From Escherichia phage vB_EcoM_R5505, in the sequence record MK373786.1: DNA of 64,000 nt. One strand, given 5' to 3'. A program made the position numbers and the translations under genes. This document shows, one piece after another, positions 4,720 to 60,844 of this stretch; the first letter of the stretch is position 1, and the number at the start of each line of letters is the position of its first letter. The notes beneath the pieces were generated by a model. That model worked only from the letters and a program-made list of their open reading frames with translations, ran no database searches and was not told where the DNA came from.

Positions 4720-4765
4720 CTTATTTCCTGTTTTAATTCGTGGTTTTAATATACTTATTTATACC

Positions 4766-5455: not shown

Positions 5456-5473
5456 ATTTTCCTCACTTATAAT

Positions 5474-5549: not shown

Positions 5550-5553
5550 TAAT

Positions 5554-5629: not shown

Positions 5630-5743
5630 ATTAATACCTACTCCAACAATCAAGATGTCTTCACACGAAATTAAGAGAAGAGTGATCAGTTCAACCCCTA
5701 TAATCGCGTCAAGTAGATATTAATGTGACAGTTGTCACAAATT

Positions 5744-5818
5744 TGGCGGACGTGATAGGATTCGAACCTATAACCAATCGCTTAACAGGCGATCGCTCTG
5801 CCATTGAGCTACACATCC
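5744..5818 (-). tRNA. tRNA-Asn (anticodon GUU)
   Basis: Cloverleaf: acceptor GGATGTG/CACGTCC, D-stem GCTC/GAGC, anticodon stem ATCGC/GCGAT loop CTGTTAA, T-arm ATAGG-TTCGAAT-CCTAT, CCA encoded. Confidence 0.75.
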
Positions 5819-5822
5819 AAAT

Positions 5823-5909
5823 TGGTGGGGAGTGGTGGAGTCGAACCACCCGAGTCGCAATGACAATGAATTTACAGTCCACACCGCTACCTCTACGGGA
5901 TAACTCCCC
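5823..5909 (-). tRNA. tRNA-Tyr (anticodon GUA), long variable arm
   Basis: Perfect acceptor GGGGAGT/ACTCCCC, T-arm GGTGG-TTCGACT-CCACC, anticodon loop CTGTAAA, ~15-nt variable arm; D-arm pairing imperfect. Confidence 0.6.
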
Positions 5910-5918
5910 AAATTAATT

Positions 5919-5993
5919 TGGTGGCCCTGGGTGGAATTGAACCACCATCTGGCGATTATGAGTCGCTTGCTTGAACCTTCCAGCTACAGGGCC
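5919..5993 (-). tRNA. tRNA with CAU anticodon (Ile2 lysidine type as in T4, or Met)
   Basis: Acceptor GGCCCTG/CAGGGCC, D-stem GCTG/AAGC, anticodon loop CTCATAA, T-arm GGTGG-TTCAATT-CCACC, CCA encoded. Confidence 0.7.
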
Positions 5994-5994
5994 T

Positions 5995-6070
5995 TGGTGC
6001 TGATTGACGGAATCGAACCGCCGACCTTCTCATTACAAGTGAGTTGCTCTACCTACTGAGCTAAATCAGC
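5995..6070 (-). tRNA. tRNA-Thr (anticodon UGU)
   Basis: Acceptor GCTGATT/AATCAGC, D-stem GCTC/GAGC, anticodon loop CTTGTAA, T-arm GGCGG-TTCGATT-CCGTC, CCA encoded. Confidence 0.85.
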
Positions 6071-6075
6071 AAAAC

Positions 6076-6165
6076 TGGCGGAGGCGATAGGATTTGAACC
6101 TATGAGTCGCCGGAGCGACTGCCGGTTTTCAAGACCGGTGCATTAAACCACTCTGCCACGCCTCC
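6076..6165 (-). tRNA. tRNA-Ser (anticodon UGA), long variable arm
   Basis: Acceptor GGAGGCG/CGCCTCC, anticodon stem ACCGG/CCGGT loop CTTGAAA, long variable stem-loop, T-arm ATAGG-TTCAAAT-CCTAT, CCA encoded. Confidence 0.85.
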
Positions 6166-6167
6166 AG

Positions 6168-6241
6168 TCTCCATACAAGGATTTGAACCTTGGACCTCCT
6201 GATCCCAAATCAGGCGCTCTACCAAACTGAGCTACACGGAG
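6168..6241 (-). tRNA. tRNA-Pro (anticodon UGG), CCA not encoded; 2-nt spacer to tRNA-Ser
   Basis: Acceptor CTCCGTG/TATGGAG, D-stem GCTC/GAGC, anticodon stem CCTGA/TCAGG loop TTTGGGA, T-arm CAAGG-TTCAAAT-CCTTG; Pro-Ser dimeric arrangement as in T4. Confidence 0.85.
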
Positions 6242-6251
6242 TAAATTAAAT

Positions 6252-6325
<74 letters not shown>

Positions 6326-6330
6326 AAATT

Positions 6331-6417
6331 TGGTGCGAGAAGTGGGACTCGAACCCACAAGGAAATCATTCCGCAGCATTTTAAGTGCTGTGCCTTTACC
6401 AATTTGACCATTCTCGC
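6331..6417 (-). tRNA. tRNA-Leu (anticodon UAA), long variable arm
   Basis: Acceptor GCGAGAA/TTCTCGC, anticodon stem CAGCA/TGCTG loop CTTAAAA, long variable arm, T-arm GTGGG-TTCGAGT-CCCAC, CCA encoded. Confidence 0.85.
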
Positions 6418-6418
6418 G

Positions 6419-6490
6419 CTGGGAATAAAGGACTCGAACCTTTGCATCTAGCAGTCAAAGTGCTATGCCTTACCAACTTGGCTAATTCCC
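6419..6490 (-). tRNA. tRNA-Gln (anticodon UUG), CCA not encoded; 1-nt spacer to tRNA-Leu
   Basis: Acceptor TGGGAAT/ATTCCCA, D-stem GCC/GGC, anticodon stem TAGCA/TGCTA loop CTTTGAC, T-arm AAAGG-TTCGAGT-CCTTT; Gln-Leu dimeric arrangement as in T4. Confidence 0.85.
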
Positions 6491-6577
6491 AATTATTAAC
6501 AAAGGCTCTCAAACAAGAACCCTTGATGATAGAGGGTATTAATCAGTGCGGTATGAGTTAATAATAACAAATAATTC

Positions 6578-7093
6578 TTAAAGCAAATTAAACATTTTAA
6601 CGGTCGGCAAAACAATTTCTTCTTCTATATAAGAGTATTTAACACTCTCAACTACACGCAAAAAATCATAATCATAATACTCAGAAGCATTACCTAAAAT
6701 ATTAATAAGTCCTTCAAGCACTTTATTACCATTCACAAAGAATAAGTCAAATACGCGTTCTTCGTCTTCTTCGGATTTATTACCAAGGTCAACTTCTATA
6801 TCAAAGACCTTTTTAATGAATTCTGGATAAAGTTGTTCTGAGAACAGTCCTTCAACCAAGTATTCATAAATAAAAAGCGATTGCTCGCTGAACAAGCCAT
6901 TACCACAATAACGTTCAGCTTTAGTACTAGAATGTCTACTTTTAAACTTCTTTAAAAGATATTGAAATTGTAAGATTTCATGCTCTTCTACGCCAAACAG
7001 TGTTTTAGTTTTATAGTTGTCACCATCATTTTCCCAGGTAGTGACATCAATTACGTAACCCTGTGGAATTGTAGTACCTAAACAAATATTCAT
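6578..7093 (-). CDS. hypothetical protein, last gene of a four-gene early operon in the tRNA-ipI variable region
   Basis: 171-aa ORF, ATG start, 4-nt overlap with upstream gene; acidic; no motif recognised. Confidence 0.65.
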   Translation of the reverse strand: MNICLGTTIPQGYVIDVTTWENDGDNYKTKTLFGVEEHEILQFQYLLKKFKSRHSSTKAERYCGNGLFSEQSLFIYEYLVEGLFSEQLYPEFIKKVFDIEVDLGNKSEEDEERVFDLFFVNGNKVLEGLINILGNASEYYDYDFLRVVESVKYSYIEEEIVLPTVKMFNLL

Positions 7094-7383
7094 TTGCTCA
7101 CCATATTAATGTAAGTATATTCAATACATTCAAGACCCAAAGGATTCTTGAAAATATCATATTCAAGAGGACCTTTTTCCGTTTCAATAAAGAAATCAAA
7201 ATTTACTGTATTAAATTTACGGTCTTCCTTCACTAATTTAACCTGAGAAGATGAACGGTCAATGTAAACCTTTTCAACTTCAAAACATGTTAAAATGCCA
7301 TAATCATCAATCAAGGCTTTAGCTGCTTCTTGATCATATTTATATCCATTTTCAATGGATGATACTTTAGCATAAAGAATCAT
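7090..7383 (-). CDS. hypothetical protein (variable-region operon)
   Basis: 97-aa ORF, ATG start, 3-nt gap to upstream gene. Confidence 0.6.
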   Translation of the reverse strand: MILYAKVSSIENGYKYDQEAAKALIDDYGILTCFEVEKVYIDRSSSQVKLVKEDRKFNTVNFDFFIETEKGPLEYDIFKNPLGLECIEYTYINMVSK

Positions 7384-7385
7384 TA

Positions 7386-7796
7386 TCAGCCTCTATCAAC
7401 GATAGCATGAGTATGGGCATTTACGATTTGCCACCAGTCGAAACGATTGGAACCATAATCTGGTTTATTTTCATTTTCTTTAATGATATCACGCAGTTTA
7501 TCTTCTGTTTCAGCATACGCAATTAAATCATCATATCCGCCACAAGGATAATAATTATCACCTGCGAATAAAAGAAAATTTACCTTAGATGGATTTACGT
7601 AATAATGGTCTTTAGGATATTTAGTTCCTCTCCAATCAGTTACTTCAACATAACGGTAAGAAAATCCATTTTTACTTTCAATCCAACTCCACGCTTCAAA
7701 AGGAGTATTAAAAACTTTATCAGGTATTAAATTACCTTCAAAATGAGAAGGATTTGCATAATCCCCGGCATAAACATAATATTCGTTAATACTCAT
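7386..7796 (-). CDS. hypothetical protein, Tyr/Trp-rich (variable-region operon)
   Basis: 136-aa ORF, ATG start immediately after upstream stop; no motif recognised. Confidence 0.65.
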   Translation of the reverse strand: MSINEYYVYAGDYANPSHFEGNLIPDKVFNTPFEAWSWIESKNGFSYRYVEVTDWRGTKYPKDHYYVNPSKVNFLLFAGDNYYPCGGYDDLIAYAETEDKLRDIIKENENKPDYGSNRFDWWQIVNAHTHAIVDRG

Positions 7797-8000: not shown

Positions 8001-8040
8001 AGATAGGGTAATAGTATCACTACCCTATCTAAAAGTAAAC
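8001..8040 (-). promoter_or_regulatory. early promoter cassette with -10 embedded in a 10-bp inverted repeat
   Basis: Minus strand: GTTTAC-N18-TACTAT; inverted repeat AGATAGGGTA/TACCCTATCT (8001-8010, 8021-8030) brackets the -10; shares 22-mer GATAGGGTAATAGTATCACTAC with 8302-8323. Confidence 0.5.
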
Positions 8041-8274
8041 TTATTTTTTACGAAAAATTGATTTATATTTATCAGCCCATTTCTCGATGACTTTTTCTGG
8101 TCCATAGATAACAAAATAATCACCAAACTCTTCACCACCGAGTTGACCGAAATTATCTAATGCATCACGAAGAACTCCATGAGGCATTTCGCCCATTTTA
8201 TCTTTCTTACCAATGTAAATAAACTCAACTTTTACATCAGCAGCTTCAGCAATAAATTCTTGATACGTTTTCAT
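8041..8274 (-). CDS. internal-protein-like small protein with canonical capsid targeting sequence
   Basis: ORF track start 8292 is GTG; ATG at 8274 with SD GGAGAATAAAATG gives 77 aa beginning MKTYQEFIAEA (matches T4 IPIII/IPII targeting motif, I-x-E cleavage site). Confidence 0.75.
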   Translation of the reverse strand: MKTYQEFIAEAADVKVEFIYIGKKDKMGEMPHGVLRDALDNFGQLGGEEFGDYFVIYGPEKVIEKWADKYKSIFRKK

Positions 8275-14488: not shown

Positions 14489-14983
14489 ATGGAAGGTTCT
14501 TCTATCGACGTCACCTTTACCGCTCAATTAGAAACAGGTGAAACGTTAGTATCTATAAATATAACTAGTTACGAAGAAACTCCTGGAGTTTTAGTAGAAG
14601 AAAATCGCTTATATGGAACATATGAATCTGTATTTGGTTTCGGAAATGACGCGTTGAAATATCGTTTAGGCGATGAATTTAAAACTGCTGCTTCATGGGA
14701 AGAACTTCCTACTGATTCTGATACTCAGTTGTATTTGTGGAAAGCTCCTCAAAATCTCCAGAAGACATTCACTTACGAAGTAACATTAATATATGACTAC
14801 CAAGAACAAAGTGAATCTGGAGGTTCTGGCAGTAATTCTAGGTCATCTTCTGATACTACTGAACCGGCAGATCCTCCTGCTCCAGTAAGAAAAACTCTCG
14901 TTAAAAATTATACTAAAACTATAGTTGGAAATTGGAGTCGTTGGGCTAATAAACTGAGAAGCTATGTGTATGAGAGGCCATAA
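14489..14983 (+). CDS. 5.1: hypothetical protein gp5.1
   Basis: ORF track start 14426 is TTG; ATG at 14489 has strong SD AGGAGA ([10 protein letters not shown]...), 164 aa; start choice uncertain. Confidence 0.65.
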
Positions 14984-15277
14984 ATGTCAGGATTAAGTTA
15001 TGATAAGTGTGTTACTGCTGGCCATGAAGCGTGGCCTCCAACAGTTGTGAATGCTACACAAAGTAAAGTATTCACTGGAGGAATTGCTGTTCTCGTAGCA
15101 GGCGATCCAATTACAGAACATACAGAAATTAAAAAGCCATATGAAACACATGGCGGAGTGACACAACCCAGAACTTCTAAAGTATATGTCACTGGAAAGA
15201 AAGCTGTTCAAATGGCTGATCCAATATCATGCGGTGATACTGTGGCTCAGGCATCATCTAAAGTATTCATTAAATAG
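14984..15277 (+). CDS. 5.4: PAAR-type spike tip protein gp5.4
   Basis: 97-aa [24 protein letters not shown]... matches T4 gp5.4; directly abuts 5.1. Confidence 0.85.
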
Positions 15278-29629: not shown

Positions 29630-32770
<3,141 letters not shown>

Positions 32771-32798: not shown

Positions 32799-34778
32799 AT
32801 GACTTTATTATCTCCGGGCATTGAGCTCAAAGAAACTACGGTTCAAAGCACCGTGGTTAATAACTCTACTGGTACAGCAGCTTTGGCCGGTAAATTCCAG
32901 TGGGGTCCTGCTTTTCAGATTAAACAGGTTACAAATGAAGTAGATTTAGTTAATACTTTTGGTCAACCAACCGCTGAAACTGCTGACTATTTTATGTCTG
33001 CGATGAATTTCTTGCAGTACGGAAATGACTTACGAGTGGTTCGTGCTGTTGATAGAGATACCGCTAAAAACTCATCGCCAATTGCTGGTAATATTGAATA
33101 CACAATTTCTACCCCAGGTAGTAACTATGCGGTTGGAGATAAAATCACGGTCAAATATGTTTCAGATGATATTGAAACTGAAGGTAAAATTACTGAAGTA
33201 GACGCAGATGGAAAAATTAAGAAAATTAATATTCCTACTGCAAAAATTATCGCTAAAGCTAAAGAAGTCGGTGAATATCCAGCACTAGGTTCTAACTGGA
33301 CTGCGGAAATTTCTTCGTCTTCCTCTGGTTTAGCTGCAGTAATAACTCTTGGAAAAATTATTACTGATTCTGGTATTTTATTAGCTGAAATTGAAAATGC
33401 TGAAGCTGCAATTACAGCGGTTGACTTTCAAGCAAATCTCGAAAAATACGGAATTCCAGGAGTAGTAGCTCTTTATCCAGGCGAATTAGGCGATAAAATT
33501 GAAATTGAAATCGTATCTAAAGCTGACTACGCAAAAGGAGCTTCTGCATTACTCCCAATTTATCCGGGCGGTGGTACTCGTGCATCTACTGCTAAAGCAG
33601 TGTTTGGATATGGACCACAAACTGATTCACAGTATGCTATTATAGTTCGTCGTAATGATGCTATTGTTCAAAGCGTTGTTCTTTCAACTAAGCGTGGTGA
33701 AAAAGATATTTACGATAGTAACATCTATATCGATGACTTTTTCGCAAAAGGTGGTTCAGAATATATTTTTGCAACTGCGCAAAACTGGCCAGAAGGCTTC
33801 TCTGGAATTTTAACTCTGTCTGGTGGATTATCATCAAATGCTGAAGTAACAGCAGGAGATTTGATGGAAGCTTGGGACTTCTTTGCTGACCGTGAATCCG
33901 TTGATGTTCAACTGTTTATTGCGGGTTCTTGTGCCGGTGAATCTTTAGAAACAGCATCTACTGTCCAAAAACACGTCGTTTCAATTGGGGATGCTCGCCA
34001 AGATTGCTTAGTATTATGCTCTCCTCCGCGTGAAACTGTAGTTGGAATTCCTGTAACTCGTGCTGTTGATAACTTAGTCAATTGGAGAACTGCAGCAGGT
34101 TCATACACTGATAATAATTTTAATATCAGTTCAACCTATGCAGCAATCGACGGCAACTACAAATATCAGTATGACAAATATAATGATGTGAATCGTTGGG
34201 TTCCATTAGCAGCTGATATTGCTGGTTTATGCGCGAGAACCGATAACGTTTCTCAGACTTGGATGTCTCCAGCTGGTTATAATCGTGGCCAAATTTTGAA
34301 CGTTATTAAACTGGCTATTGAAACTCGCCAGGCTCAGCGCGACCGTTTATACCAAGAAGCTATCAACCCGGTAACTGGTACAGGTGGTGATGGTTACGTA
34401 TTGTATGGTGATAAAACAGCTACTTCTGTTCCTTCTCCGTTTGATCGTATTAACGTTCGTCGTCTGTTTAATATGTTGAAAACGAATATCGGACGTAGTT
34501 CAAAATATCGTTTGTTCGAATTAAACAATGCGTTTACTCGTTCATCATTCCGCACAGAAACTGCCCAGTACTTACAGGGAATTAAAGCTCTCGGTGGAAT
34601 TTATGAATATCGTGTAGTTTGCGATACAACAAATAACACTCCGTCAGTAATTGATAGAAATGAGTTTGTTGCAACATTCTACATCCAACCGGCGCGCAGT
34701 ATAAATTATATTACTTTGAATTTCGTCGCAACTGCTACCGGCGCAGATTTCGATGAGTTAACTGGTCTTGCAGGTTAA
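32799..34778 (+). CDS. 18: tail sheath protein gp18
   Basis: 659-aa ORF; size and synteny as T4 gp18. Confidence 0.95.
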   Translation: MTLLSPGIELKETTVQSTVVNNSTGTAALAGKFQWGPAFQIKQVTNEVDLVNTFGQPTAETADYFMSAMNFLQYGNDLRVVRAVDRDTAKNSSPIAGNIEYTISTPGSNYAVGDKITVKYVSDDIETEGKITEVDADGKIKKINIPTAKIIAKAKEVGEYPALGSNWTAEISSSSSGLAAVITLGKIITDSGILLAEIENAEAAITAVDFQANLEKYGIPGVVALYPGELGDKIEIEIVSKADYAKGASALLPIYPGGGTRASTAKAVFGYGPQTDSQYAIIVRRNDAIVQSVVLSTKRGEKDIYDSNIYIDDFFAKGGSEYIFATAQNWPEGFSGILTLSGGLSSNAEVTAGDLMEAWDFFADRESVDVQLFIAGSCAGESLETASTVQKHVVSIGDARQDCLVLCSPPRETVVGIPVTRAVDNLVNWRTAAGSYTDNNFNISSTYAAIDGNYKYQYDKYNDVNRWVPLAADIAGLCARTDNVSQTWMSPAGYNRGQILNVIKLAIETRQAQRDRLYQEAINPVTGTGGDGYVLYGDKTATSVPSPFDRINVRRLFNMLKTNIGRSSKYRLFELNNAFTRSSFRTETAQYLQGIKALGGIYEYRVVCDTTNNTPSVIDRNEFVATFYIQPARSINYITLNFVATATGADFDELTGLAG

Positions 34779-34785
34779 TTGATAT

Positions 34786-34799
34786 GGGGCTTCGGCCCC
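34786..34799 (+). terminator. stem-loop GGGGCTTCGGCCCC after gene 18
   Basis: 5-bp GC stem with TTCG loop 8 nt after gene 18 stop; the in-frame ATG at 34784 lies inside this hairpin. Confidence 0.5.
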
Positions 34800-34816
34800 T
34801 ATTCTCGAGGAATCAA

Positions 34817-35434
34817 GTGATTATTTCTAAATTTATTAAAGTGAAAATTGTACCATCAAATTTTAAACATTATCAGTCAAAGGGTTATAAATTAACACCT
34901 CTTGGAGCGGTTAAACACGGATTTAGGTATTATGAAATTGATGTTAAAGTTGAAGACATTAAAGGTAGTACCGCGTATGTAAAATGCCGTTGCGATAAAT
35001 GTGGAATTGAATATAACCAACGCATTGGAAGAAACACTGATATTTGTCGTGATTGCCGTCATAAAGATAAAATGCGTAATAATTCATATGGTTCCGCGAA
35101 TAAAGGAAAAACAGTAGAATGTATGCATGGCGCAAATCATCCAAGATGGAACCCAAATAAATCTGAAATGCGTGAATATATTTCATTGGTATATAAAGAA
35201 ACTCGTAAGCATAAGAAAATTTGGTCAAAATGGCCAAATGCTGATAAAATAGGAGTGTGCGGTACAAAAGGTGCTTACCAACTTGATCATAAGATATCTA
35301 TCAAATACGGTTTTGATAATTTAATTCCTGCTAAAATAATTGGCGGTATTAATAATTTAGAAATAATCACTTGGGAATCTAACCGAGAAAAATCCAAAAG
35401 AAATAGTGTAGATCTTTGGGATTTACTAGAATGA
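34817..35434 (+). CDS. free-standing HNH-family endonuclease (putative homing endonuclease) inserted between genes 18 and 19
   Basis: Cys4 zinc-finger region (CRCDKCG...CRDCRH) plus HNH-like core (GAYQLDHKISIKYG...NLEIITWESNREK); likely GTG start at 34817 preceded by SD GAGGA; ORF track starts at ATG 34784. Confidence 0.7.
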   Translation: MIISKFIKVKIVPSNFKHYQSKGYKLTPLGAVKHGFRYYEIDVKVEDIKGSTAYVKCRCDKCGIEYNQRIGRNTDICRDCRHKDKMRNNSYGSANKGKTVECMHGANHPRWNPNKSEMREYISLVYKETRKHKKIWSKWPNADKIGVCGTKGAYQLDHKISIKYGFDNLIPAKIIGGINNLEIITWESNREKSKRNSVDLWDLLE

Positions 35435-35441
35435 TTCTAAA

Positions 35442-35459
35442 GGCCTGTTTCGGCAGGCC
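35442..35459 (+). terminator. stem-loop GGCCTG-TTTCGG-CAGGCC after the HNH gene
   Basis: 6-bp stem starting 8 nt after HNH stop; followed directly by TATAAATA. Confidence 0.45.
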
Positions 35460-35460
35460 A

Positions 35461-35468
35461 TATAAATA
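35461..35468 (+). promoter_or_regulatory. late promoter TATAAATA (distal copy) upstream of gene 19
   Basis: Exact TATAAATA 81 nt upstream of gene 19 ATG. Confidence 0.5.
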
Positions 35469-35519
35469 CACTATATCCTTAATTCTTTAATTCTATATGC
35501 CCTAGGTTAAACATAGGGA

Positions 35520-35527
35520 TATAAATA
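35520..35527 (+). promoter_or_regulatory. late promoter TATAAATA (proximal copy) for gene 19
   Basis: Exact TATAAATA 14 nt upstream of gene 19 ATG, preceded by hairpin CCCTA-N9-TAGGG (35500-35518). Confidence 0.55.
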
Positions 35528-35541
35528 CTACAGAGGCTAAT

Positions 35542-36033
35542 ATGTTTGTAGATGATGTAACACGCGCGTTTGAATCGGGTGATTTTGCGCGACCTAACTT
35601 ATTCCAAGTAGAAATTTCTTATCTTGGACAAAATTTTACGTTTCAATGTAAAGCCACTGCTTTACCAGCTGGTATTGTAGAAAAAATTCCAGTCGGATTT
35701 ATGAACCGTAAAATTAACGTAGCAGGCGATCGTACATTCGATGACTGGACTGTTACAGTAATGAACGATGAAGCTCATGATGCTCGTCAGAAGTTCGTTG
35801 ATTGGCAAAGCATTGCTGCGGGGCAAGGAAACGAAATTACTGGTGGAAAACCTGCAGAGTATAAAAAGAGCGCTATCGTTCGTCAATATGCTCGTGACGC
35901 TAAAACAGTAACAAAAGAAATTGAAATTAAAGGTCTGTGGCCTACTAACGTGGGTGAACTTCAATTAGATTGGGATTCAAACAATGAAATCCAAACATTT
36001 GAAGTAACTCTTGCTCTCGATTATTGGGAATAA
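35542..36033 (+). CDS. 19: tail tube protein gp19
   Basis: 163-aa ORF MFVDDVTRAFESGDFARPNLFQVEISYLGQNF...; size and synteny as T4 gp19. Confidence 0.95.
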   Translation: MFVDDVTRAFESGDFARPNLFQVEISYLGQNFTFQCKATALPAGIVEKIPVGFMNRKINVAGDRTFDDWTVTVMNDEAHDARQKFVDWQSIAAGQGNEITGGKPAEYKKSAIVRQYARDAKTVTKEIEIKGLWPTNVGELQLDWDSNNEIQTFEVTLALDYWE

Positions 36034-39860: not shown

Positions 39861-41426
39861 ATGACTATCAAAACTAAAGCTGAACTTTTGAACAAATGGA
39901 AGCCATTACTGGAAGGTGAAGGTTTACCGGAAATTGCTAATAGCAAACAAGCGATTATCGCTAAAATCTTTGAAAACCAGGAAAAAGATTTCCAGACAGC
40001 TCCAGAATATAAAGACGAAAAAATTGCTCAGGCATTTGGTTCTTTCTTAACAGAAGCTGAAATCGGTGGTGACCACGGTTACAATGCTACCAACATCGCT
40101 GCAGGTCAGACTTCTGGCGCAGTAACTCAGATTGGCCCAGCTGTTATGGGTATGGTACGTCGTGCTATTCCTAACCTGATTGCTTTCGATATTTGTGGTG
40201 TTCAGCCGATGAACAGCCCAACCGGTCAGGTATTCGCACTCCGCGCGGTATATGGTAAAGACCCAATCGCTGCCGATGCTAAAGAAGCATTCCACCCAAT
40301 GTATGGTCCAGATGCAATGTTCTCTGGTCAGGGTGCTGCTAAGAAATTCCCAGCTCTGGCTGCTAGCACACAAACCACAGTAGGTGATATCTATACTCAC
40401 TTCTTCCAGGACACTGGTACTGTGTATCTGCAAGCTTCTGCTCAAGTAACAATCGATGCTGGTGCGACTGATGCTGCTAAATTAGATGCTGAAATTAAGA
40501 AACAAATGGAAGCTGGTGCACTGGTAGAAATCGCTGAAGGTATGGCTACTTCTATCGCTGAACTTCAGGAAGGTTTCAATGGTTCTACCGATAACCCATG
40601 GAATGAAATGGGCTTCCGTATCGATAAGCAAGTTATCGAAGCTAAATCTCGTCAGCTGAAAGCTGCTTACTCTATTGAATTAGCACAAGACCTCCGCGCT
40701 GTTCACGGTATGGATGCTGATGCTGAACTGTCTGGTATTCTGGCTACCGAAATCATGCTGGAAATCAACCGTGAAGTTGTTGATTGGATTAACTACTCCG
40801 CACAGGTTGGTAAATCTGGTATGACCCTGACTCCGGGTTCTAAAGCTGGCGTATTTGACTTCCAGGACCCAATCGATATTCGTGGTGCTCGCTGGGCAGG
40901 TGAATCCTTTAAAGCTCTGTTGTTCCAGATTGACAAAGAAGCAGTTGAAATTGCTCGTCAAACCGGTCGCGGCGAAGGTAACTTCATTATCGCTTCCCGT
41001 AACGTAGTTAACGTTCTGGCTTCAGTTGATACCGGCATTTCTTATGCTGCACAAGGTCTGGCTACCGGCTTTAACACTGATACTACCAAGTCAGTATTTG
41101 CTGGTGTTCTGGGTGGTAAATACCGTGTATATATCGACCAGTATGCTAAACAGGATTATTTCACTGTAGGTTATAAAGGTCCGAACGAAATGGATGCTGG
41201 TATTTACTATGCTCCATATGTAGCTCTGACTCCGCTGCGTGGTTCCGATCCGAAGAACTTCCAACCGGTAATGGGATTCAAAACTCGTTACGGTATCGGT
41301 ATCAACCCATTTGCAGAATCCGCTGCTCAGGCTCCGGCTTCTCGCATCCAGAGCGGTATGCCTTCTATTCTGAATAGCCTTGGTAAAAACGCTTACTTCC
41401 GCCGTGTATATGTTAAAGGTATCTAA
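39861..41426 (+). CDS. 23: major capsid protein gp23
   Basis: 521-aa ORF; size, codon usage (high-expression bias, GC-richer) and synteny as T4 gp23. Confidence 0.95.
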   Translation: MTIKTKAELLNKWKPLLEGEGLPEIANSKQAIIAKIFENQEKDFQTAPEYKDEKIAQAFGSFLTEAEIGGDHGYNATNIAAGQTSGAVTQIGPAVMGMVRRAIPNLIAFDICGVQPMNSPTGQVFALRAVYGKDPIAADAKEAFHPMYGPDAMFSGQGAAKKFPALAASTQTTVGDIYTHFFQDTGTVYLQASAQVTIDAGATDAAKLDAEIKKQMEAGALVEIAEGMATSIAELQEGFNGSTDNPWNEMGFRIDKQVIEAKSRQLKAAYSIELAQDLRAVHGMDADAELSGILATEIMLEINREVVDWINYSAQVGKSGMTLTPGSKAGVFDFQDPIDIRGARWAGESFKALLFQIDKEAVEIARQTGRGEGNFIIASRNVVNVLASVDTGISYAAQGLATGFNTDTTKSVFAGVLGGKYRVYIDQYAKQDYFTVGYKGPNEMDAGIYYAPYVALTPLRGSDPKNFQPVMGFKTRYGIGINPFAESAAQAPASRIQSGMPSILNSLGKNAYFRRVYVKGI

Positions 41427-41440
41427 TCTTTGACGATTTA

Positions 41441-41470
41441 AGGGACCTTCGGGTCCCTTTAGTTGTTTTT
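41441..41470 (+). terminator. rho-independent terminator after gene 23
   Basis: Hairpin AGGGACC-TTCG-GGTCCCT followed by T-rich tract TTAGTTGTTTTT. Confidence 0.65.
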
Positions 41471-41474
41471 ATGG

Positions 41475-41482
41475 TATAAATA
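41475..41482 (+). promoter_or_regulatory. late promoter (TATAAATA) for gene 24
   Basis: Exact TATAAATA 27 nt upstream of gene 24 ATG. Confidence 0.6.
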
Positions 41483-41509
41483 AATCATATAAACCAAAAG
41501 GAAAGCGCA

Positions 41510-42793
41510 ATGGCTAAAATCAACGAACTTCTGCGCGAATCAACCACAACGAATAGCAACTCAATCGGTCGCCCAAATCTCGTTGCTTTGACTCGCGCTA
41601 CCACTAAATTAATATATTCTGACATTGTAGCAACGCAAAGAACTAATCAACCTGTTGCTGCTTTTTATGGTATCAAATACCTTAACCCAGACAATGAATT
41701 TACATTTAAAACTGGTGCTACTTACGCTGGCGAAGCCGGATATGTAGACCGAGAACAAATCACAGAATTAACAGAAGAGTCTAAATTAACTCTCAATAAA
41801 GGCGATTTATTCAAATATAATAATATCGTTTATAAAGTATTAGAAGATACACCATTTGCTGATATTGAAGAAAGCGACTTAGAGTTAGCTCTTCAGATTG
41901 CAATTGTTCTTTTAAAGGTTCGTCTATTTTCTGACGCAGCGTCAACAAGCAAATTTGAAAGCTCTGATAGTGAAATTGCGGATGCTAGATTCCAGATTAA
42001 TAAATGGCAAACCGCAGTTAAATCTCGTAAACTTAAAACTGGTATCACAGTTGAATTAGCGCAAGATTTAGAAGCAAATGGATTCGATGCTCCTAATTTC
42101 TTGGAAGATTTGCTTGCAACTGAAATGGCAGATGAAATCAATAAAGATATTCTACAGTCTTTGATTACAGTGTCAAAACGCTATAAAGTTACAGGAATTA
42201 CTGATAGTGGATTCATCGATTTGAGTTATGCATCTGCTCCTGAAGCTGGTCGTTCATTATACCGAATGGTATGTGAAATGGTTTCGCATATCCAAAAAGA
42301 ATCAACTTATACAGCAACATTCTGTGTTGCTTCTGCTCGTGCTGCTGCGATTCTTGCTGCATCAGGTTGGTTAAAACATAAACCAGAAGATGATAAATAT
42401 CTTTCACAAAATGCCTATGGGTTTTTAGCTAATGGTTTACCACTTTATTGCGATACTAACAGCCCATTAGATTATGTAATCGTTGGCGTAGTAGAAAATA
42501 TCGGTGAAAAAGAAATTGTTGGATCAATTTTCTATGCTCCGTATACAGAAGGTCTCGACTTAGATGACCCTGAACATGTAGGTGCATTTAAAGTTGTAGT
42601 TGATCCAGAAAGTTTGCAGCCATCTATCGGTTTATTAGTTAGATATGCTTTATCAGCAAATCCTTACACCGTAGCAAAAGATGAAAAAGAAGCAAGAGTA
42701 ATTGATGGTGGAGACATGGATAAAATGGCGGGTCGTTCAGATTTGTCTGTTTTATTAGGTGTTAAATTACCAAAAATTATTATTGATGAATAA
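41510..42793 (+). CDS. 24: capsid vertex protein gp24
   Basis: 427-aa ORF; size and synteny as T4 gp24; no endonuclease gene between 23 and 24. Confidence 0.9.
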   Translation: MAKINELLRESTTTNSNSIGRPNLVALTRATTKLIYSDIVATQRTNQPVAAFYGIKYLNPDNEFTFKTGATYAGEAGYVDREQITELTEESKLTLNKGDLFKYNNIVYKVLEDTPFADIEESDLELALQIAIVLLKVRLFSDAASTSKFESSDSEIADARFQINKWQTAVKSRKLKTGITVELAQDLEANGFDAPNFLEDLLATEMADEINKDILQSLITVSKRYKVTGITDSGFIDLSYASAPEAGRSLYRMVCEMVSHIQKESTYTATFCVASARAAAILAASGWLKHKPEDDKYLSQNAYGFLANGLPLYCDTNSPLDYVIVGVVENIGEKEIVGSIFYAPYTEGLDLDDPEHVGAFKVVVDPESLQPSIGLLVRYALSANPYTVAKDEKEARVIDGGDMDKMAGRSDLSVLLGVKLPKIIIDE

Positions 42794-45546: not shown

Positions 45547-46227
45547 TTATTTTAATGTTACGAAAGAAGAATTGCGTGTTTCACGAATTAAAACTGATCC
45601 GTCACGGTTAATGTAATAAATTAAGCTAAATAAAGTTTGGTGTGCTGACGCGTGTTCAAAACTAGTTGGGTGAGATTTCCAATCAGGAGTTTCAGCAATC
45701 CATTGATAAATCCACCAAGGAACGGTACAAAATCCTGGATTTTTTCCAATCAGCTGAAGATTCGGACTAAAGTTTTCCGGAAGAGTAAATACAGACGGCT
45801 TTTCAGATTCAATAATCTCAGCTACAGCCTGTTCAAATTTTTCTTCAACAAAAGGAGTATCTTCAATCAAAACTGAGGTATTTTCAGGAATTTTATCCGT
45901 TTCTACTACTTCAATTTTAATGTCAGATTTAACCGGAGAATCAATCAGAAGTGCTGCTTCTGGATTGACTTCTTCATCGTCATATTTTAATCCCTCTGCG
46001 GCATCAGCAGCATCAATTAAGTCTTTAATAGATAACCCATCAGTCTCTGGCATAGGTTCACTAGCAAGCTTCTGGAGGGCTTCTTCAATATCAACAACGA
46101 TATTATCAAAAGATTTATTCTTTTTGACCTTTATACCAAACTGTTCAGCATATTCAGCTAATTTAGCTTTAGCTTCTTTATTATCATCAAGAGCCTTCAG
46201 CTCTGCAATATAATCTTTATCTATCAT
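45547..46227 (-). CDS. inh: inhibitor of prohead protease
   Basis: 226-aa ORF; size and position as T4 inh; no gene between inh and uvsW. Confidence 0.8.
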   Translation of the reverse strand: MIDKDYIAELKALDDNKEAKAKLAEYAEQFGIKVKKNKSFDNIVVDIEEALQKLASEPMPETDGLSIKDLIDAADAAEGLKYDDEEVNPEAALLIDSPVKSDIKIEVVETDKIPENTSVLIEDTPFVEEKFEQAVAEIIESEKPSVFTLPENFSPNLQLIGKNPGFCTVPWWIYQWIAETPDWKSHPTSFEHASAHQTLFSLIYYINRDGSVLIRETRNSSFVTLK

Positions 46228-46240
46228 AATATTTCCTCAG

Positions 46241-46248
46241 TATAAATA
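46241..46248 (+). promoter_or_regulatory. late promoter (TATAAATA) for uvsW
   Basis: Exact TATAAATA 29 nt upstream of uvsW ATG. Confidence 0.6.
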
Positions 46249-46277
46249 TAGATATATTTATTACATGGTATTTAGAC

Positions 46278-47789
46278 ATGACTGACATTAAAGTACATTT
46301 TTATGATTTTAGTCACGTGAGAATTGATTGTGAAGAAAGTACATTTCATGAACTCCGTGATTTCTTTAGCTTTGAAGCTGATGGGTATCGTTTTAATCCG
46401 AAATACAAATATGGCCACTGGGATGGACGAATCCGTCTTTTAGATTATAATCGTCTTCTTCCATTCGGCTTAGTCGGGCAAATTAAAAAGTTCTGTGATA
46501 ACTTTGGCTATAAAGCCTGGATTGACCCACAAATTAACGAAAAAGAAGAATTATCAAGAAAAGATTTTGATGAATGGCTTTCTAAATTAGAAATCTATTC
46601 AGGAAATAAAAGAATTGAACCACACTGGTATCAAAAAGATGCAGTGTTCGAAGGATTAGTTAATCGTCGTAGAATTCTTAATCTTCCAACATCCGCTGGT
46701 AAATCTTTAATTCAAGCTTTGCTTGCGCGATATTATTTGGAAAATTATGAAGGTAAAATTCTTATCATTGTTCCAACAACTGCTCTGACAACTCAGATGG
46801 CTGATGACTTCGTCGACTATCGTTTATTCAGTCATGCAATGATAAAGAAAATTGGTGGCGGAGCATCAAAAGATGATAAATATAAAAATGATGCACCAGT
46901 CGTTGTTGGTACATGGCAAACTGTAGTAAAACAACCGAAAGAATGGTTCTCACAGTTTGGAATGATGATGAATGATGAATGCCATCTTGCTACAGGAAAA
47001 AGTATTTCATCTATCATATCAGGTTTAAATAACTGCATGTTCAAATTTGGTCTATCAGGTTCATTACGTGATGGCAAAGCCAATATCATGCAGTATGTTG
47101 GAATGTTTGGTGAAATATTTAAGCCAGTAACGACTTCTAAATTAATGGAAGATGGACAAGTAACTGAGCTAAAAATTAATAGTATTTTTCTTCGCTATCC
47201 CGATGAGTTCACTACTAAATTAAAGGGAAAAACTTATCAAGAAGAAATAAAAATTATTACTGGGCTTAGTAAAAGAAATAAATGGATCGCTAAATTAGCT
47301 ATTAAGCTTGCGCAAAAAGATGAAAACGCTTTTGTCATGTTTAAACATGTATCGCATGGTAAAGCTATTTTCGATTTAATTAAAAATGAATACGATAAAG
47401 TTTATTACGTATCAGGGGAAGTTGATACCGAAACCCGCAATATAATGAAAACCTTAGCTGAAAATGGTAAAGGAATAATTATAGTAGCTAGTTATGGTGT
47501 ATTTTCTACTGGTATTTCAGTTAAAAATCTGCATCACGTTGTTTTAGCGCACGGTGTTAAATCAAAAATCATTGTATTACAAACAATCGGTCGTGTATTA
47601 CGTAAGCATGGTTCTAAGACAATAGCAACTGTCTGGGACCTCATAGATGATTGTGGCGTTAAGCCAAAATCTGCTAATACGAAAAAGAAATATGTTCATT
47701 TGAACTATCTTTTAAAACACGGCATTGATCGTATTCAGCGCTACGCAGATGAAAAATTTAATTACGTAATGAAAACAGTTAATTTATAA
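46278..47789 (+). CDS. uvsW: UvsW DNA/RNA helicase
   Basis: 503-aa ORF with Walker A (LPTSAGKS) and DECH box (MNDECHLATG). Confidence 0.9.
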   Translation: MTDIKVHFYDFSHVRIDCEESTFHELRDFFSFEADGYRFNPKYKYGHWDGRIRLLDYNRLLPFGLVGQIKKFCDNFGYKAWIDPQINEKEELSRKDFDEWLSKLEIYSGNKRIEPHWYQKDAVFEGLVNRRRILNLPTSAGKSLIQALLARYYLENYEGKILIIVPTTALTTQMADDFVDYRLFSHAMIKKIGGGASKDDKYKNDAPVVVGTWQTVVKQPKEWFSQFGMMMNDECHLATGKSISSIISGLNNCMFKFGLSGSLRDGKANIMQYVGMFGEIFKPVTTSKLMEDGQVTELKINSIFLRYPDEFTTKLKGKTYQEEIKIITGLSKRNKWIAKLAIKLAQKDENAFVMFKHVSHGKAIFDLIKNEYDKVYYVSGEVDTETRNIMKTLAENGKGIIIVASYGVFSTGISVKNLHHVVLAHGVKSKIIVLQTIGRVLRKHGSKTIATVWDLIDDCGVKPKSANTKKKYVHLNYLLKHGIDRIQRYADEKFNYVMKTVNL

Positions 47790-47802
47790 GGGCTTCGGCC
47801 CT
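47789..47802 (+). terminator. stem-loop AGGGCTTCGGCCCT after uvsW
   Basis: Hairpin overlapping the uvsW stop; followed by the SD for uvsW.1. Confidence 0.45.
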
Positions 47803-47814
47803 TTGGAGAAAAAG

Positions 47815-48045
47815 ATGTTACTAGAATTTAAACAATTTCTTTATGAAGCTTCTATTGATGAATTTATGGGTAAAATTGCCTCTTGTCAAACATTAGAAGG
47901 TTTAGAAGAACTTGAAGCTTATTATAAGAAAAGAGTCAAAGAAACTGAATTAAAAGATACTGATGACATCTCAGTTAGAGATGCTTTGGCAGGAAAAAGA
48001 GCTGAATTAGAAGATTCAGACGATGAAGTAGAAGAAAGCTTTTAA
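47815..48045 (+). CDS. uvsW.1: hypothetical protein, T4 uvsW.1 position
   Basis: ORF track start 47803 is TTG; ATG 47815 with SD GGAGAAAAAG gives 76 aa MLLEFKQFLYEASIDEF... Confidence 0.65.
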   Translation: MLLEFKQFLYEASIDEFMGKIASCQTLEGLEELEAYYKKRVKETELKDTDDISVRDALAGKRAELEDSDDEVEESF

Positions 48046-56695: not shown

Positions 56696-58753
56696 CTACA
56701 TCTTGAACTTTTTAGACATTCCGTTGATGTTAACCAAAGAAGCCAAGATTTGAGAAACTTCGTTTTCCTCTTCTTTTGATTCTTCTACAAGGAATTGATT
56801 AAATCCAGCCATTGGACGAACTTCACCAGTTTCCATTAAATGGTCGCCATCATATACTGATTCTTCTAATTGTTCAGAAGGAGGAACGATTGTACCTTCG
56901 ATTAGATACTTGTTATAAGCAGTTTCTTTCATAAAGTACGTACTTACTTTATTAATCTTCAGTAAAATTCCACGCGGTAGAATAACTTCAGCTTCTGATG
57001 GAAATCCTGATAAATGACCTGGAACGATAACTTTGATTCGCTCAGCTCCTTTAATTACCATACCCACGCTAGTTTCAGCATCTTCAATGGCATATGTAGA
57101 ATGACTACCCATATGCATTAAATCTTCTGCATCAACGGAACCTTCTCCTTCGCCAGAAAATACTGCGCCGGAATCATCTAGAGCCATATAGTTTTTACCA
57201 TGCTCACCGAAGATATTTGGTTTAAGTGATGTCGATACGAAGTTCTTGAAATAGAACATTTTGTTTTCAATGTTATGACGCAAAGTTTTAAAGGTAACTT
57301 CTTGTCCACGGTAAAGTGTAGTTCCTGGAGGAAGAACTGATCCTTTGGCAAAGGCAGAATCCAACGTCTCGATGTGCTTAATAGCTCGTTCCATATATTC
57401 TTCACGGGTAGAATCTGGTTTACCCAAAAGGAACGAGTTCATTTCAACATATGAATCTGCACAATAATCTTCAATTACATCAGATTCAGCTTGGGTTAAT
57501 CCTTTTGGAGTTACTTCGGTGCTTGCGTATTCATATGCCTGGGCAGCAGATTCATTAATCAATTTATAAATGCCATTCATGACAAATTGAATAATAGCTG
57601 TCTTTTCATCTGGCGTAGCTTTAGAACCTTTAACTAAATCATTAATAATTTTCTTAATAACATCAAAGCTATTAGAAATATTAATGTCAGCAAGATCGCT
57701 TAAAATTTTATCAGTTTTATAATCAAAGAATTCTTTATTCTTTAAATATTCTTGAGAACCTTGATATGTTATATCGCTCTGCAACTTGATAGATGGATCA
57801 CGTAAACGTGCATGGGCTAATGCAATATGATTTCGGAAGTTTTCTAGTTCATAATCGTTAGATTTAAAACGAGAAGCACTTCTCATACCACCGATAGCTC
57901 CTTTGCTAAAGTTTGAACCAATCTGGATAACCCCGGAGTTCATCGGACCTTCTGCTTTATATACCGGAACTTTAGATTCAAACTCTTGATATTTCTTGGC
58001 AGCGAAGCTATCACCCTGAAGTGAAGCATCAACAGTAGAATATTGAGCTTGTGCTGCTAATCGACGACTAATTTTAGTTTTCTGAATAACAGCTTGATCA
58101 GTGCGCTTATCATTTTCTAAAGCAATAGAAGCAGCAACAGCGACAGCTTTAGGAACAGCATTACCTGTTTTAACGTCTACATAAACATCACCAACCTTTG
58201 ATTCAACTTTTGTGAATAACTCAGTTGAAATAGGAGGTACACCTGGAATGTCTTCTAAATTGGCATTTTTACGGTAAACCATAATATATGCATACTTTTT
58301 ATCATAGTCCCAGATTTCCTTTAAAAGAACATATCGACCTGCTCCTTTAGTACGTACTAAACGGTCAGCAATAACTTGCATTTGACGAGCTGCGCCATTT
58401 GTTTTACTCTTTAGTACACGGAATAAGCACGCGTCAATTTTGTACTGCTTCATTGTTTGAAGAGCAGTATCAAAAACAGCATTAATGACGCCAATTGGAT
58501 TTCCACCCAAGTTTCTAAGCTTAACCAGCGATAATTTCTCGTTGACACCTATCATTACGATATGCATCATTTTATCGCCTGGTTTAACGTTTTTATTTGT
58601 ATCACCACCAGAGGTGTATGTACAAAATCTAAATCCAGGAAGAACGCTTTCTTCACCGGCTTGAATAGCAAAAATTTGAGGTATTTTATGCTTAGGATTT
58701 AAGTTAACAACCGGCGCCGAAGCGCCGTCAAATAATTCTGTAATAAGTTCCAT
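56696..58753 (-). CDS. Alt-family ADP-ribosyltransferase paralog (occupies the T4 alt.-2/alt.-1 position)
   Basis: 685-aa ORF MELITELFDGASAPV...; R / STS / E-x-E motifs (LYRGQ, FVSTSL, SEAEVILPRG); N-terminal ~230 aa ~65% identical to downstream alt. Confidence 0.8.
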   Translation of the reverse strand: MELITELFDGASAPVVNLNPKHKIPQIFAIQAGEESVLPGFRFCTYTSGGDTNKNVKPGDKMMHIVMIGVNEKLSLVKLRNLGGNPIGVINAVFDTALQTMKQYKIDACLFRVLKSKTNGAARQMQVIADRLVRTKGAGRYVLLKEIWDYDKKYAYIMVYRKNANLEDIPGVPPISTELFTKVESKVGDVYVDVKTGNAVPKAVAVAASIALENDKRTDQAVIQKTKISRRLAAQAQYSTVDASLQGDSFAAKKYQEFESKVPVYKAEGPMNSGVIQIGSNFSKGAIGGMRSASRFKSNDYELENFRNHIALAHARLRDPSIKLQSDITYQGSQEYLKNKEFFDYKTDKILSDLADINISNSFDVIKKIINDLVKGSKATPDEKTAIIQFVMNGIYKLINESAAQAYEYASTEVTPKGLTQAESDVIEDYCADSYVEMNSFLLGKPDSTREEYMERAIKHIETLDSAFAKGSVLPPGTTLYRGQEVTFKTLRHNIENKMFYFKNFVSTSLKPNIFGEHGKNYMALDDSGAVFSGEGEGSVDAEDLMHMGSHSTYAIEDAETSVGMVIKGAERIKVIVPGHLSGFPSEAEVILPRGILLKINKVSTYFMKETAYNKYLIEGTIVPPSEQLEESVYDGDHLMETGEVRPMAGFNQFLVEESKEEENEVSQILASLVNINGMSKKFKM

Positions 58754-58756
58754 GAT

Positions 58757-60844
58757 TTATCCTTGAACGAACTTGTAAGGCATGTTTGTAATATCTATGC
58801 AAGACGCAATAATTCCAAGAGATGATTCTACTTTCTGTTTAACATTTGATGAAACAAATGATGCAAAGTCAACTCTATCTTCTATATCACCTGTCATTGC
58901 AACTACTTCGCCGGTTTCCATTAAACGGTCACCGTCATAAATTACCGATTCGGTGAGTTCTTCTGTGGTCATAACTTCAGCTTGAATGAGTTTTGTATTA
59001 TTAGACGTGGTTCCGTCATTATTAGAAGCATCAGTTATTTTATTAACTTTAACCATCAATCCGCGCGGTAGAATAACTTCAGCTTCTGTTGCTATTCCTA
59101 GACTTCCTGGATATACAACATTAACTTTATGTGCGCCGTCAATTGCCCATCCTATTTGAACTTTAACGTATTCAGGATTTTCTTTATACGCTCTTATTTC
59201 GTTTGGATTAATAGTTATTCCTTCTTCATTTTTATCAACTGTCAATTCATTACGAGCTTCTGGTTCTAAAAGACCAATACCAGCATGTGTAATTCCAAAA
59301 CGCCCAAAAATGATAGGAGTTAAAGAAGTAGATACAAAATTTCTGAAATAGAACACTTTATTTTTAACTAGCGCTTCGTATATAGGAGCAGTCATACTTT
59401 GAGCACGATAAACTGTAATGCCTTCCGGTATGCGGTCACCATTTTCAAAAGCTGAATCTAAATTATTTATAGCAGATTCAATTTCTTTTTCACTCATTAC
59501 ATCATATCGTTCTGGATTGTAACGACCTAAAAGAAGATTATTGATGTCAGTATATCCTGAACCACAATACTCTCTAATGCCGCGCTTTTGTGATGGAGTA
59601 TATTTAGAACCATCACGAGCAATAGTAATATCAATCATTGGACCTGCACCAATTCCGGAAAAGCTATAAATCATTCGTTTGAGGAATTTAGTTTTTGCTG
59701 CGTTCCAGGAATTTTTAGTTATTTCTTCCCAGACTTCATCTGGTTGCCCTTTACGAGTTTTATTATGTTTATCAAGCCAATTATCTTTATATTCTTCAAA
59801 GAATTTATTAATAGCTGCTGCGTATTTCTCTAAACATTTTATTGAAGTAGTTGGTTCATTTTTTATCGCGTTAAAAATTACATCTTTAATTTTTTCGGAA
59901 ACTTCATCAACCTCACTTTTTGAAAAGAATTTATAGTCATAGTGAAGTTCATTCGCAGTTCCTTCGGCAATAATTTTTGCTGCCTTAGTTTTAGAAGCTA
60001 ATGAATTAATTCCAAGCTTCATTTCTTCTGCTTCGGGAATTAAAGGAGCGGTAGCGGGTTTATTGAAATTAGCTGCGGTAGATTCATACTTCTGAAATAA
60101 TTCACTTTCAAATCTAGAAGATTCCAATGACTGACTTTGTGCAATTGCTCTACGGGAAATTTTAACTTTAACGATTACAGCTTGATCAGAACGTTTATCA
60201 TTTTCTTGCGCAATAGATGCTGCAATTGCCTCATTTTTAGTTACTTGAGCTCCAGTATCTTTATTGATATAAACATCACCGACCTTCGATTCAACTTTAG
60301 TAAAGAGCTCGGTACTAATTTCCGGAACCCCTGGAATGTCTTCTAGTGATACATTTTTGCGATGTATAAGAATATATGCATACTTTTTATCGTAATCCCA
60401 GAGTTCCTTAAGAAGGACGTATCTGCCACCTGAACGACTACGGATAAGTCTATCAGCAATAACCTGAATTTGTCGAGCTTGACCAGCGGTTTTAGACTTA
60501 AGAATACGAAGCATACAGGCATCAATTTTATACTGACGCATTGTTTGCATTGCAACAGTAAAAACTGAATTGATATAATTAATTGGGCTTGAACCAAGAC
60601 CTTTCAATTTAGCAATTGAACCTTTAGCAGTTAATGTAAAAGGAACAATATGCATCATTTTATCGCCCATCTTTAAATCGCGATTAGTATCACCTCCAGA
60701 TGTATAGGTACATAAACGAAAGCCTGGTTGTTCAATTGCATCATCAACATGAACTGAAAAAATTTGTGGTATTTTCTTCTTTGGGTTTAAGTTTGTAATC
60801 GGAAGAGTAGTATCTTCGTCAAATAATTCTGTAATGAGTTCCAT
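58757..60844 (-). CDS. alt: Alt ADP-ribosyltransferase (packaged, injected with DNA)
   Basis: ATG at 60844 (second of tandem ATGs) gives MELITELFDEDTTLPITNL...; R / STS / E-x-E motifs (VYRAQ, FVSTSL, TEAEVILPRG). Confidence 0.85.
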   Translation of the reverse strand: MELITELFDEDTTLPITNLNPKKKIPQIFSVHVDDAIEQPGFRLCTYTSGGDTNRDLKMGDKMMHIVPFTLTAKGSIAKLKGLGSSPINYINSVFTVAMQTMRQYKIDACMLRILKSKTAGQARQIQVIADRLIRSRSGGRYVLLKELWDYDKKYAYILIHRKNVSLEDIPGVPEISTELFTKVESKVGDVYINKDTGAQVTKNEAIAASIAQENDKRSDQAVIVKVKISRRAIAQSQSLESSRFESELFQKYESTAANFNKPATAPLIPEAEEMKLGINSLASKTKAAKIIAEGTANELHYDYKFFSKSEVDEVSEKIKDVIFNAIKNEPTTSIKCLEKYAAAINKFFEEYKDNWLDKHNKTRKGQPDEVWEEITKNSWNAAKTKFLKRMIYSFSGIGAGPMIDITIARDGSKYTPSQKRGIREYCGSGYTDINNLLLGRYNPERYDVMSEKEIESAINNLDSAFENGDRIPEGITVYRAQSMTAPIYEALVKNKVFYFRNFVSTSLTPIIFGRFGITHAGIGLLEPEARNELTVDKNEEGITINPNEIRAYKENPEYVKVQIGWAIDGAHKVNVVYPGSLGIATEAEVILPRGLMVKVNKITDASNNDGTTSNNTKLIQAEVMTTEELTESVIYDGDRLMETGEVVAMTGDIEDRVDFASFVSSNVKQKVESSLGIIASCIDITNMPYKFVQG

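Follow-up and report, generated by a model that had tools for sequence, protein, structure and literature searches.

An optional ORF19.1-type gene between tail genes 18 and 19 of a T4-like phage, a candidate free-standing homing endonuclease with a zinc ribbon and an HNH-like core

The stretch of DNA considered here (the window) comprises 64,000 nucleotides (nt) of Escherichia phage vB_EcoM_R5505 (sequence record MK373786.1), and our subject is an open reading frame (ORF) that lies in it between gene 18, encoding the tail sheath, and gene 19, encoding the tail tube. The phage is T4-like, a member of the genus Tequatrovirus, and the window represents its late-gene region. The nearest record across 24 kilobases (kb) is that of Shigella phage Sf22 (97.4%). 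A single ORF, ending at 35434, is present in the 18-19 interval and could begin either at an ATG at 34784 (216 amino acids, aa) or at a GTG at 34817 (205 aa). The GTG is favoured because most homologues, those from other genera included, begin with M-I-I at the equivalent codon. The 11-aa extension that would result from use of the ATG is confined to Tequatrovirus and is not shared beyond it, and the record of the corresponding gene of phage T6 carries the wording 'likely begin by GTG'. An earlier reading of this DNA made from the letters alone (the sequence-only reading) had placed an ORF of about 205 aa between genes 18 and 19 and had chosen the GTG as its start. Both proposals were borne out, the second by the Shine-Dalgarno GAGGAA, by the M-I-I starts of the homologues and by the T6 record (Table 1).

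The sequence is not new, as T6 ORF19.1 (1994) and RB3_165 of phage RB3 occupy the same locus, and sequence comparison identifies the ORF of the window as the RB3-type allele of T-even 'ORF19.1'. RB3_165 (AIT72901.1, 'hypothetical protein') is the same gene at the same site with 98.5-99% aa identity, a level of identity at which RB3_165-type genes were found in 47 phage records, and there are copies in RB5-10, KRT47, Sf22, HP3 and others. At the nucleotide level the identity to RB3-type copies is 98.8% over 1.5 kb of gene and flanks. The label 'homing endonuclease' is attached without evidence in the records of ADUt and phi1_146043, and in the literature searched we found no paper characterising ORF19.1 (gene 19.1) or any homing endonuclease located in the 18-19 interval. 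The T6 record probably stems from Repoila et al. in 1994. T6 ORF19.1 resembles the RB3-type gene in its position, leader hairpin, Shine-Dalgarno, GTG start and M-I-I-S-K-F N-terminus. Over the final ~70 codons, whose products are nearly identical, the two agree at about 90% nucleotide identity. The proteins are nevertheless only 49% identical overall, and the N-terminal two-thirds (the zinc-ribbon half described below) are unrelated at the DNA level. These two alleles coexist among phages whose gp18 is 99% identical.

Chimeric junction queries indicated that about 118 phage records are occupied, by one or other allele, and that about 534 are empty. The VR26 group is likewise mixed, with one locus occupied (L021) and two empty (L020, L022), and junction scans of IMG/VR returned five empty sites and no occupied ones, which are too few for population analysis. 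The ORF therefore occupies a precise intergenic site and is patchily distributed in close relatives, as is the case for the optional ORFs of seg- and mob-type homing endonuclease genes.

The boundaries of the insert were defined by alignment to T4 and confirmed by blastn. An 8 nt sequence of T4 (TACGGTGC) is replaced by 34779-35433 and identity to T4 resumes from 35434, this first common base being overlapped by the TGA stop of the ORF. In T4 the 18-19 spacer is 116 nt long and carries no insert, in agreement with the statement of the sequence-only reading that the two genes are nearly adjacent there. That reading had also described the ORF as bracketed by hairpins and had taken a late promoter, TATAAATA, occurring at both 35461 and 35520, for a duplicate borne on the cassette. 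Both boxes are present and both hairpins fold as described, yet because identity to T4 runs from 35434 on, the insert contributes no hairpin other than the upstream one. Insert-free T4 matches the downstream hairpin and the two boxes base for base, so that these are ancestral and duplication of the promoter through insertion is ruled out. The boxes resemble each other over only ~10 nt of promoter consensus, and TATAAATA is found 24 times in the window (9.6 expected by chance). Neither hairpin qualifies in intrinsic-terminator scoring, because a U-tract is absent after both. A stable hairpin 3' of gene 18 was seen at nine of the ten occupied loci compared, other genera included, the exception being a metagenomic locus (L039) at which the ORF overlaps the gene 18 stop.

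Table 1. Features at and around the gene 18-19 interval (positions in the window; residues counted from GTG 34817).
Feature	Position	Strand	Remarks
Gene 17	30935-32767		followed by gene 18
TATAAATA late-promoter box 5' of gene 18	32763-32770	+	sole + strand consensus late promoter upstream of the ORF
Gene 18, tail sheath, intact	32799-34778	+	98.6% aa identity to T4 gp18
Synonymous hypervariable patch, 3' end of gene 18	34694-34742	+	three haplotypes in Tequatrovirus
Optional cassette (hairpin, Shine-Dalgarno, ORF)	34779-35433	+	655 nt; T4 has TACGGTGC instead
UUCG-tetraloop hairpin GGGGC-UUCG-GCCCC, insert-specific	34786-34799	+	just 3' of the gene 18 stop; no U-tract
Shine-Dalgarno GAGGAA	34807-34812	+	4 nt 5' of the GTG start
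ORF19.1-type gene, putative zinc-ribbon/HNH endonuclease	34817-35434	+	GTG start; 205 aa plus stop
Cys4 zinc ribbon (C59, C62, C77, C80), treble-clef-like, putative DNA-binding module	34991-35056	+	
Predicted beta-beta-alpha-metal core (D157-H158, N180-L181, N189, K192)	35285-35392	+	
Hairpin GGCCUGU-UUCG-GCAGGCC, ancestral, also in T4	35442-35459	+	-12.8 kcal/mol, z -3.1
TATAAATA box, ancestral, also in T4	35461-35468	+	
TATAAATA box before gene 19, ancestral, also in T4	35520-35527	+	predicted late promoter in the phage fPS-2 annotation
Gene 19, tail tube, intact	35542-36033	+	100% aa identity to T4; gene 20 next

The protein belongs to a large family that is without functional annotation. 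It matches PHROG 5104 (unknown function) over its full length (E 2e-90, residues 12-215 of the 216-aa form), as do distant relatives. Its homologues fall into 43 clusters at 90% identity, none of them with a Pfam domain, and an exhaustive profile search returned 6965 cluster representatives at E<=0.001, sampled to about 25% identity. The sequence-only reading had described an N-terminal Cys4 region and a C-terminal HNH-like core and both were found, with C59, C62, C77 and C80 on the one hand and D157, H158, N180, L181, N189 and K192 on the other invariant or nearly so in alignments of 28 and then 40 homologues. The D157-H158 pair is invariant in alignments of 28, 40 and 20 sequences, and D157, H158, N180 and N189 are invariant over 40 distant members.

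AlphaFold (AF2) models of the full-length protein (with alignment) and of the C-terminal domain have mean confidence scores (pLDDT) of 86.7 and 82.6 respectively. In these models a beta-rich N-terminal module holding the Cys4 zinc ribbon is followed by a low-confidence basic linker at residues ~80-110 (G-x-N-H-P-R-W-N-P-N-K) and then by a helical domain, the strand YQLDH, two short helices, the strand LEIIT and the helix WESNREK. D157-H158 lies on predicted strand 154-158, the nearly invariant N180-L181 lies by predicted strand 181-185, and N189 and K192 are carried on helix 186-192. The predicted structure thus has the beta-beta-alpha-metal fold of the HNH (His-Me finger) superfamily. For the N-terminal part, the family profile matches the zinc domain of trypanosomatid mS66 (E 3.4e-4), and one relative matches DUF4379 (PF14311) at 1.5e-4, a domain for which the window protein itself has no match. 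In sequence the zinc module would appear to resemble the treble-clef DUF4379 type. The Pfam HNH profile is reached below threshold by two relatives (E 0.018 and 0.069), exactly on the motif, and one of the two also matches HNH_4 and HNH_5 there (E 0.013-0.016). Several relatives carry the JGI label 'McrA', and a PADLOC search for defence systems gave no match. We conclude from the motif and the predicted fold, rather than from profile statistics, that the C-terminal domain very probably represents a divergent nuclease domain of the HNH (H-N-N) type.

Purifying selection acts on the ORF. Among four RB3-type copies, the ratio of non-synonymous to synonymous differences (pN/pS) was 0.06-0.33 in five of the six pairs, all counts being small, with the sixth pair (ADUt and YwIITB1) giving 0.74 from only 4 differences.

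The most obvious comparison is with the Mob proteins of T4, which are free-standing HNH homing endonucleases that pair an HNH motif with a zinc finger (PMC2988022, PMC10055350). Like mobA-E, the gene of the window is an optional intergenic ORF between conserved T-even genes and encodes an HNH-type motif together with a zinc finger. In the Mob family, however, an N-terminal HNH_3 domain (PF13392) precedes a C-terminal zinc finger, whereas the window protein has the two the other way round (ribbon at residues 59-80, core at 157-192) and does not match HNH_3. The protein is therefore not a member of the mob family, for which the sequence-only reading had suggested a profile search, and tblastn found no second copy of the gene in mob-carrying genomes. 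The small HNH nicking endonucleases Gme HNH (4h9d), phage GVE2 HNH (5h0o) and T5 SciA (9qgx) share 8-17% identity with the window protein and have no profile link to it. These enzymes consist of a single domain or take part in packaging or nicking, and none is fused to a zinc ribbon at its N-terminus. In the HNH homing endonucleases I-HmuI and I-TevIII, which introns encode, the catalytic domain is N-terminal, in contrast to the window gene, which is free-standing with its catalytic domain C-terminal. A tblastn search of the window with T4 segB, segC (with 5.3), segD and segE gave no match. The sites of these genes are closed, with 5.1 abutting 5.4 at the segC site (14980-14984), 23 abutting 24 at the segD site (41423-41510) and inh abutting uvsW at the segE site (46227-46284); the segB region is 4000-7400. 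Because these four genes are unmatched, the endonuclease complement of the window does differ from that of T4, as had been supposed.

The position of the gene is conserved over a much wider range of phages. In all the phage records inspected a homologue follows gene 18 directly; these were the records of T6-type Tequatrovirus, STP4-a, Ci1, Acinetobacter phage Melin, Serratia phage CHI14, Aeromonas phage AS-zj and Sinorhizobium phage phiM12. The last of these lies outside the Straboviridae and the gene that follows the homologue there is not gp19. One of three metagenomic relatives looked up (P0226, loci L039-L041) also sits directly after the sheath gene. The placement relative to the regulatory elements is not constant. 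In Tequatrovirus and STP4-a the ORF precedes the ancestral late-promoter boxes (and, in Tequatrovirus, the ancestral hairpin too), whereas in Melin, CHI14 and VR26 it follows a late promoter, with 3-9 nt separating it from gene 19. Repeated insertion accounts for this shift from genus to genus more readily than a single ancient event would.

The C-terminal domain is also found joined to other N-terminal modules, in relatives that lie in other intergenic positions flanked by essential genes, namely after gp23 and beside clamp-loader genes, and NUMOD3 or helix-turn-helix modules are present in some relatives. The family thus has both interchangeable DNA-binding modules and paralogues at other insertion sites. 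At one metagenomic locus (L035, 4001-4537) a gene with the same C-terminal nuclease domain and a different zinc-containing N-terminus lies directly 3' of gp23, a site at which T4 has the GIY-YIG gene segD. In a separate case, two of three near-identical metagenomic T4-like contigs (L040 and L041, 5116-5682) have an optional 188-aa ORF with a faint NUMOD3 match between gp19 and the portal gene, which is not present in the third (L039). This ORF was considered as possible kin of ORF19.1 and rejected, as it shows no relationship to the nuclease domain of ORF19.1.

Immediately upstream of the insert, within the last 85 nt of gene 18, lies a hypervariable patch (34694-34742) at which the differences are almost wholly synonymous. 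The ~115 nt before it (34579-34693) show almost no variation across ten Tequatrovirus sequences. In three genera there is a tendency towards ATA-AAT-TAT in occupied genomes as against ATY-AAC-TAC in their empty sisters. The records are phylogenetically non-independent and the association is not strict. In the fetched record of YwIITB1 the ORF is present with a full T4-type patch, and in that of fPS-2 the ORF is absent and the patch is of the RB3 type, the same being true of at least about 110 other empty genomes. Among the matches listed, only three occupied records (sb1, Ec_YwIITB1 and sb3) matched the T4-type patch query at 96% or above, and most empty-site records did not closely match the RB3-type patch. 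The patch was considered as a cleavage or immunity site and rejected, all four combinations of haplotype and occupancy being represented in the chimeric queries and the two fetched records. There is only a hint in the residual association between patch and insert, which is compatible with linkage or co-conversion among genomes that are not independent samples.

With regard to expression, no TATAAATA was found on the + strand between 32763 and 35461, and no sigma-70-like site stood out over shuffled controls. The sequence TATAAATT at 34700 was considered as a late promoter belonging to the ORF itself and was rejected, being missing in the occupied genome YwIITB1 and present in empty ones. Since there is no nearer + strand consensus late promoter, transcripts of the ORF are likely to arise from the gene 18 late promoter by read-through over the UUCG hairpin. 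Folding suggested weak pairing of the Shine-Dalgarno region with 34820-34827, and low translation would be expected from this pairing together with the GTG start.

Taken together, these observations probably fit a family of free-standing homing endonucleases, and from them we infer homing itself. The ORF most likely encodes a free-standing homing endonuclease from an HNH (H-N-N) subfamily for which no domain model exists, a reading to which we would give a probability of roughly 0.6. Under this interpretation the zinc-ribbon half would bind a specific sequence at or near the gene 18/19 junction of genomes that lack the ORF, and the single HNH site would nick or cut at that junction, the best structural matches being nicking enzymes. 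In a mixed infection, recombination-dependent repair of the T4 type would then copy the ORF and adjacent markers from donor to recipient. Expression would be late and low, through read-through from the gene 18 late promoter past a hairpin that has no U-tract and through use of a GTG start, and a carrier would be immune because the insertion splits the sequence of the empty site.

Several results weigh against this interpretation. The window protein has no significant match to an HNH profile in Pfam, NCBIfam or the PDB by phmmer and hmmsearch, and HNH is equally unmatched in these databases by the family profile and the domain profile. The sequence-only reading had named the lack of an HNH profile match as refuting its proposal, and by that test the window protein fails, leaving the HNH assignment to stand on motif, predicted fold and the below-threshold matches of relatives. 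Foldseek against the PDB returned no match, and hhalign against an alignment of the HK97 gp74 HNH enzyme aligned only 12 columns, on the D-H strand, with 5.8% probability. The gene 18 patch, which might have marked the target, is not an immunity determinant, because every combination of haplotype and occupancy was found. Finally, the strict synteny from Tequatrovirus to phiM12 is also what would be expected of an old accessory gene that has often been lost.

This last point leads to a different account of the locus, in which the ORF would be an accessory gene of long standing in the tail or late-gene module of T4-like phages, vertically inherited and frequently lost, that encodes a zinc-finger nuclease useful to the phage and not engaged in homing. 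Such a nuclease might nick or degrade the DNA of a competitor or of the host, or might aid recombination or packaging. The same post-gene-18 position in very distant phages, phiM12 outside the Straboviridae among them, is in keeping with this, as are the purifying selection, a divergence of the ORF between genera that roughly scales with that of gp18 and gp19, and the operon-like arrangement in several genera in which the ORF stands behind a late promoter and 3-21 nt 5' of gene 19. It is less easily reconciled with alleles that are 49% identical inside one genus in which gp18 is 99% identical, with a patchy distribution among near-identical genomes of several genera, with a position relative to hairpin and promoter that varies by genus, or with relatives that carry other DNA-binding modules at other intergenic sites. 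We therefore consider vertical inheritance with loss to be rather unlikely.

Movement of the cassette might alternatively be passive, through homologous or short-motif recombination at the hairpin and promoter, with the protein uninvolved in its spread. Stem-loop motifs of the PeSL type have been proposed as mediators of insertions and deletions in T4-like phages (PMC4122927), and the insert does lie between a gene end and a conserved unit of stem-loop and promoter and has brought a stem-loop of its own. Ordinary recombination must moreover be frequent at this flank, because all four haplotype and occupancy combinations exist. The PeSLs that have been described are, however, early-promoter units of hyperplastic regions and not of late structural operons (PMC4122927), and passive movement leaves unexplained both the constant nuclease cargo at this site across genera and the conservation of the catalytic motif, which makes it distinctly improbable. 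That the protein is a zinc-ribbon regulator binding DNA or RNA, its C-terminal D-H/N/N a structural relic, would suit the lack of a significant HNH profile match and the empty Foldseek result but is very improbable given that D-H, N and N are invariant across a family of this size and depth (6965 representatives, to about 25% identity).

Other differences from T4 were noted elsewhere in the window. The tRNA cluster at 5474-6491 (- strand) has 11 tRNAs (Arg, His, Asn, Tyr, Met, Thr, Ser, Pro, Gly, Leu and Gln) as compared with 8 in T4, and window-specific DNA at 4241-4760, 5106-5973 and 6598-7111 holds ORFs of 157, 116 and 171 aa that have no T4 counterpart. At uvsW (46284-48042) T4 UvsW is matched in two reading frames that overlap at 47794-47813, so that, compared with the current T4 reference, the gene either is split (uvsW and uvsW.1) or carries a frameshift. 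Tandem alt paralogues occupy 56705-60844 (- strand), the copy at 58760-60844 having 70% identity to T4 Alt and that at 56705-58753 only 41%; the latter stands in place of the T4 alt.-1/-2/-3 region. Short segments at 8021-8252 and 59609-60037 have no blastn match to the T4 reference.

Surprise at the gene is limited, because it has been in the databases since 1994 and its presumed lifestyle is well known. A more far-reaching proposal is that the HNH subfamily, to which neither Pfam nor PHROGs assigns a function, has followed one site just 3' of gene 18 throughout the T4-like radiation, from Tequatrovirus through Acinetobacter and Aeromonas phages to Sinorhizobium phiM12. It would have stayed invasive by exchanging its zinc-ribbon half in place, as between the RB3-type and T6-type alleles, in an arms race of which the patch in gene 18 would be the footprint. 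We regard this as speculative and unlikely; if true, a nuclease and the target-site variants of an essential structural gene would be opposed at one locus. A nicking enzyme that is site-specific and whose zinc-ribbon module can be exchanged might also be of some practical interest. Where T-even phages co-infect a cell, free-standing homing endonucleases shape both the boundaries of recombination and the exclusion of markers. If the ORF19.1 protein is active, it would add to the T-even repertoire a new HNH subfamily in which the zinc-ribbon half is N-terminal and the catalytic half C-terminal, would provide a function for PHROG 5104 and the large unannotated family to which it belongs, and would account for the hypervariability seen locally at the 3' end of gene 18.

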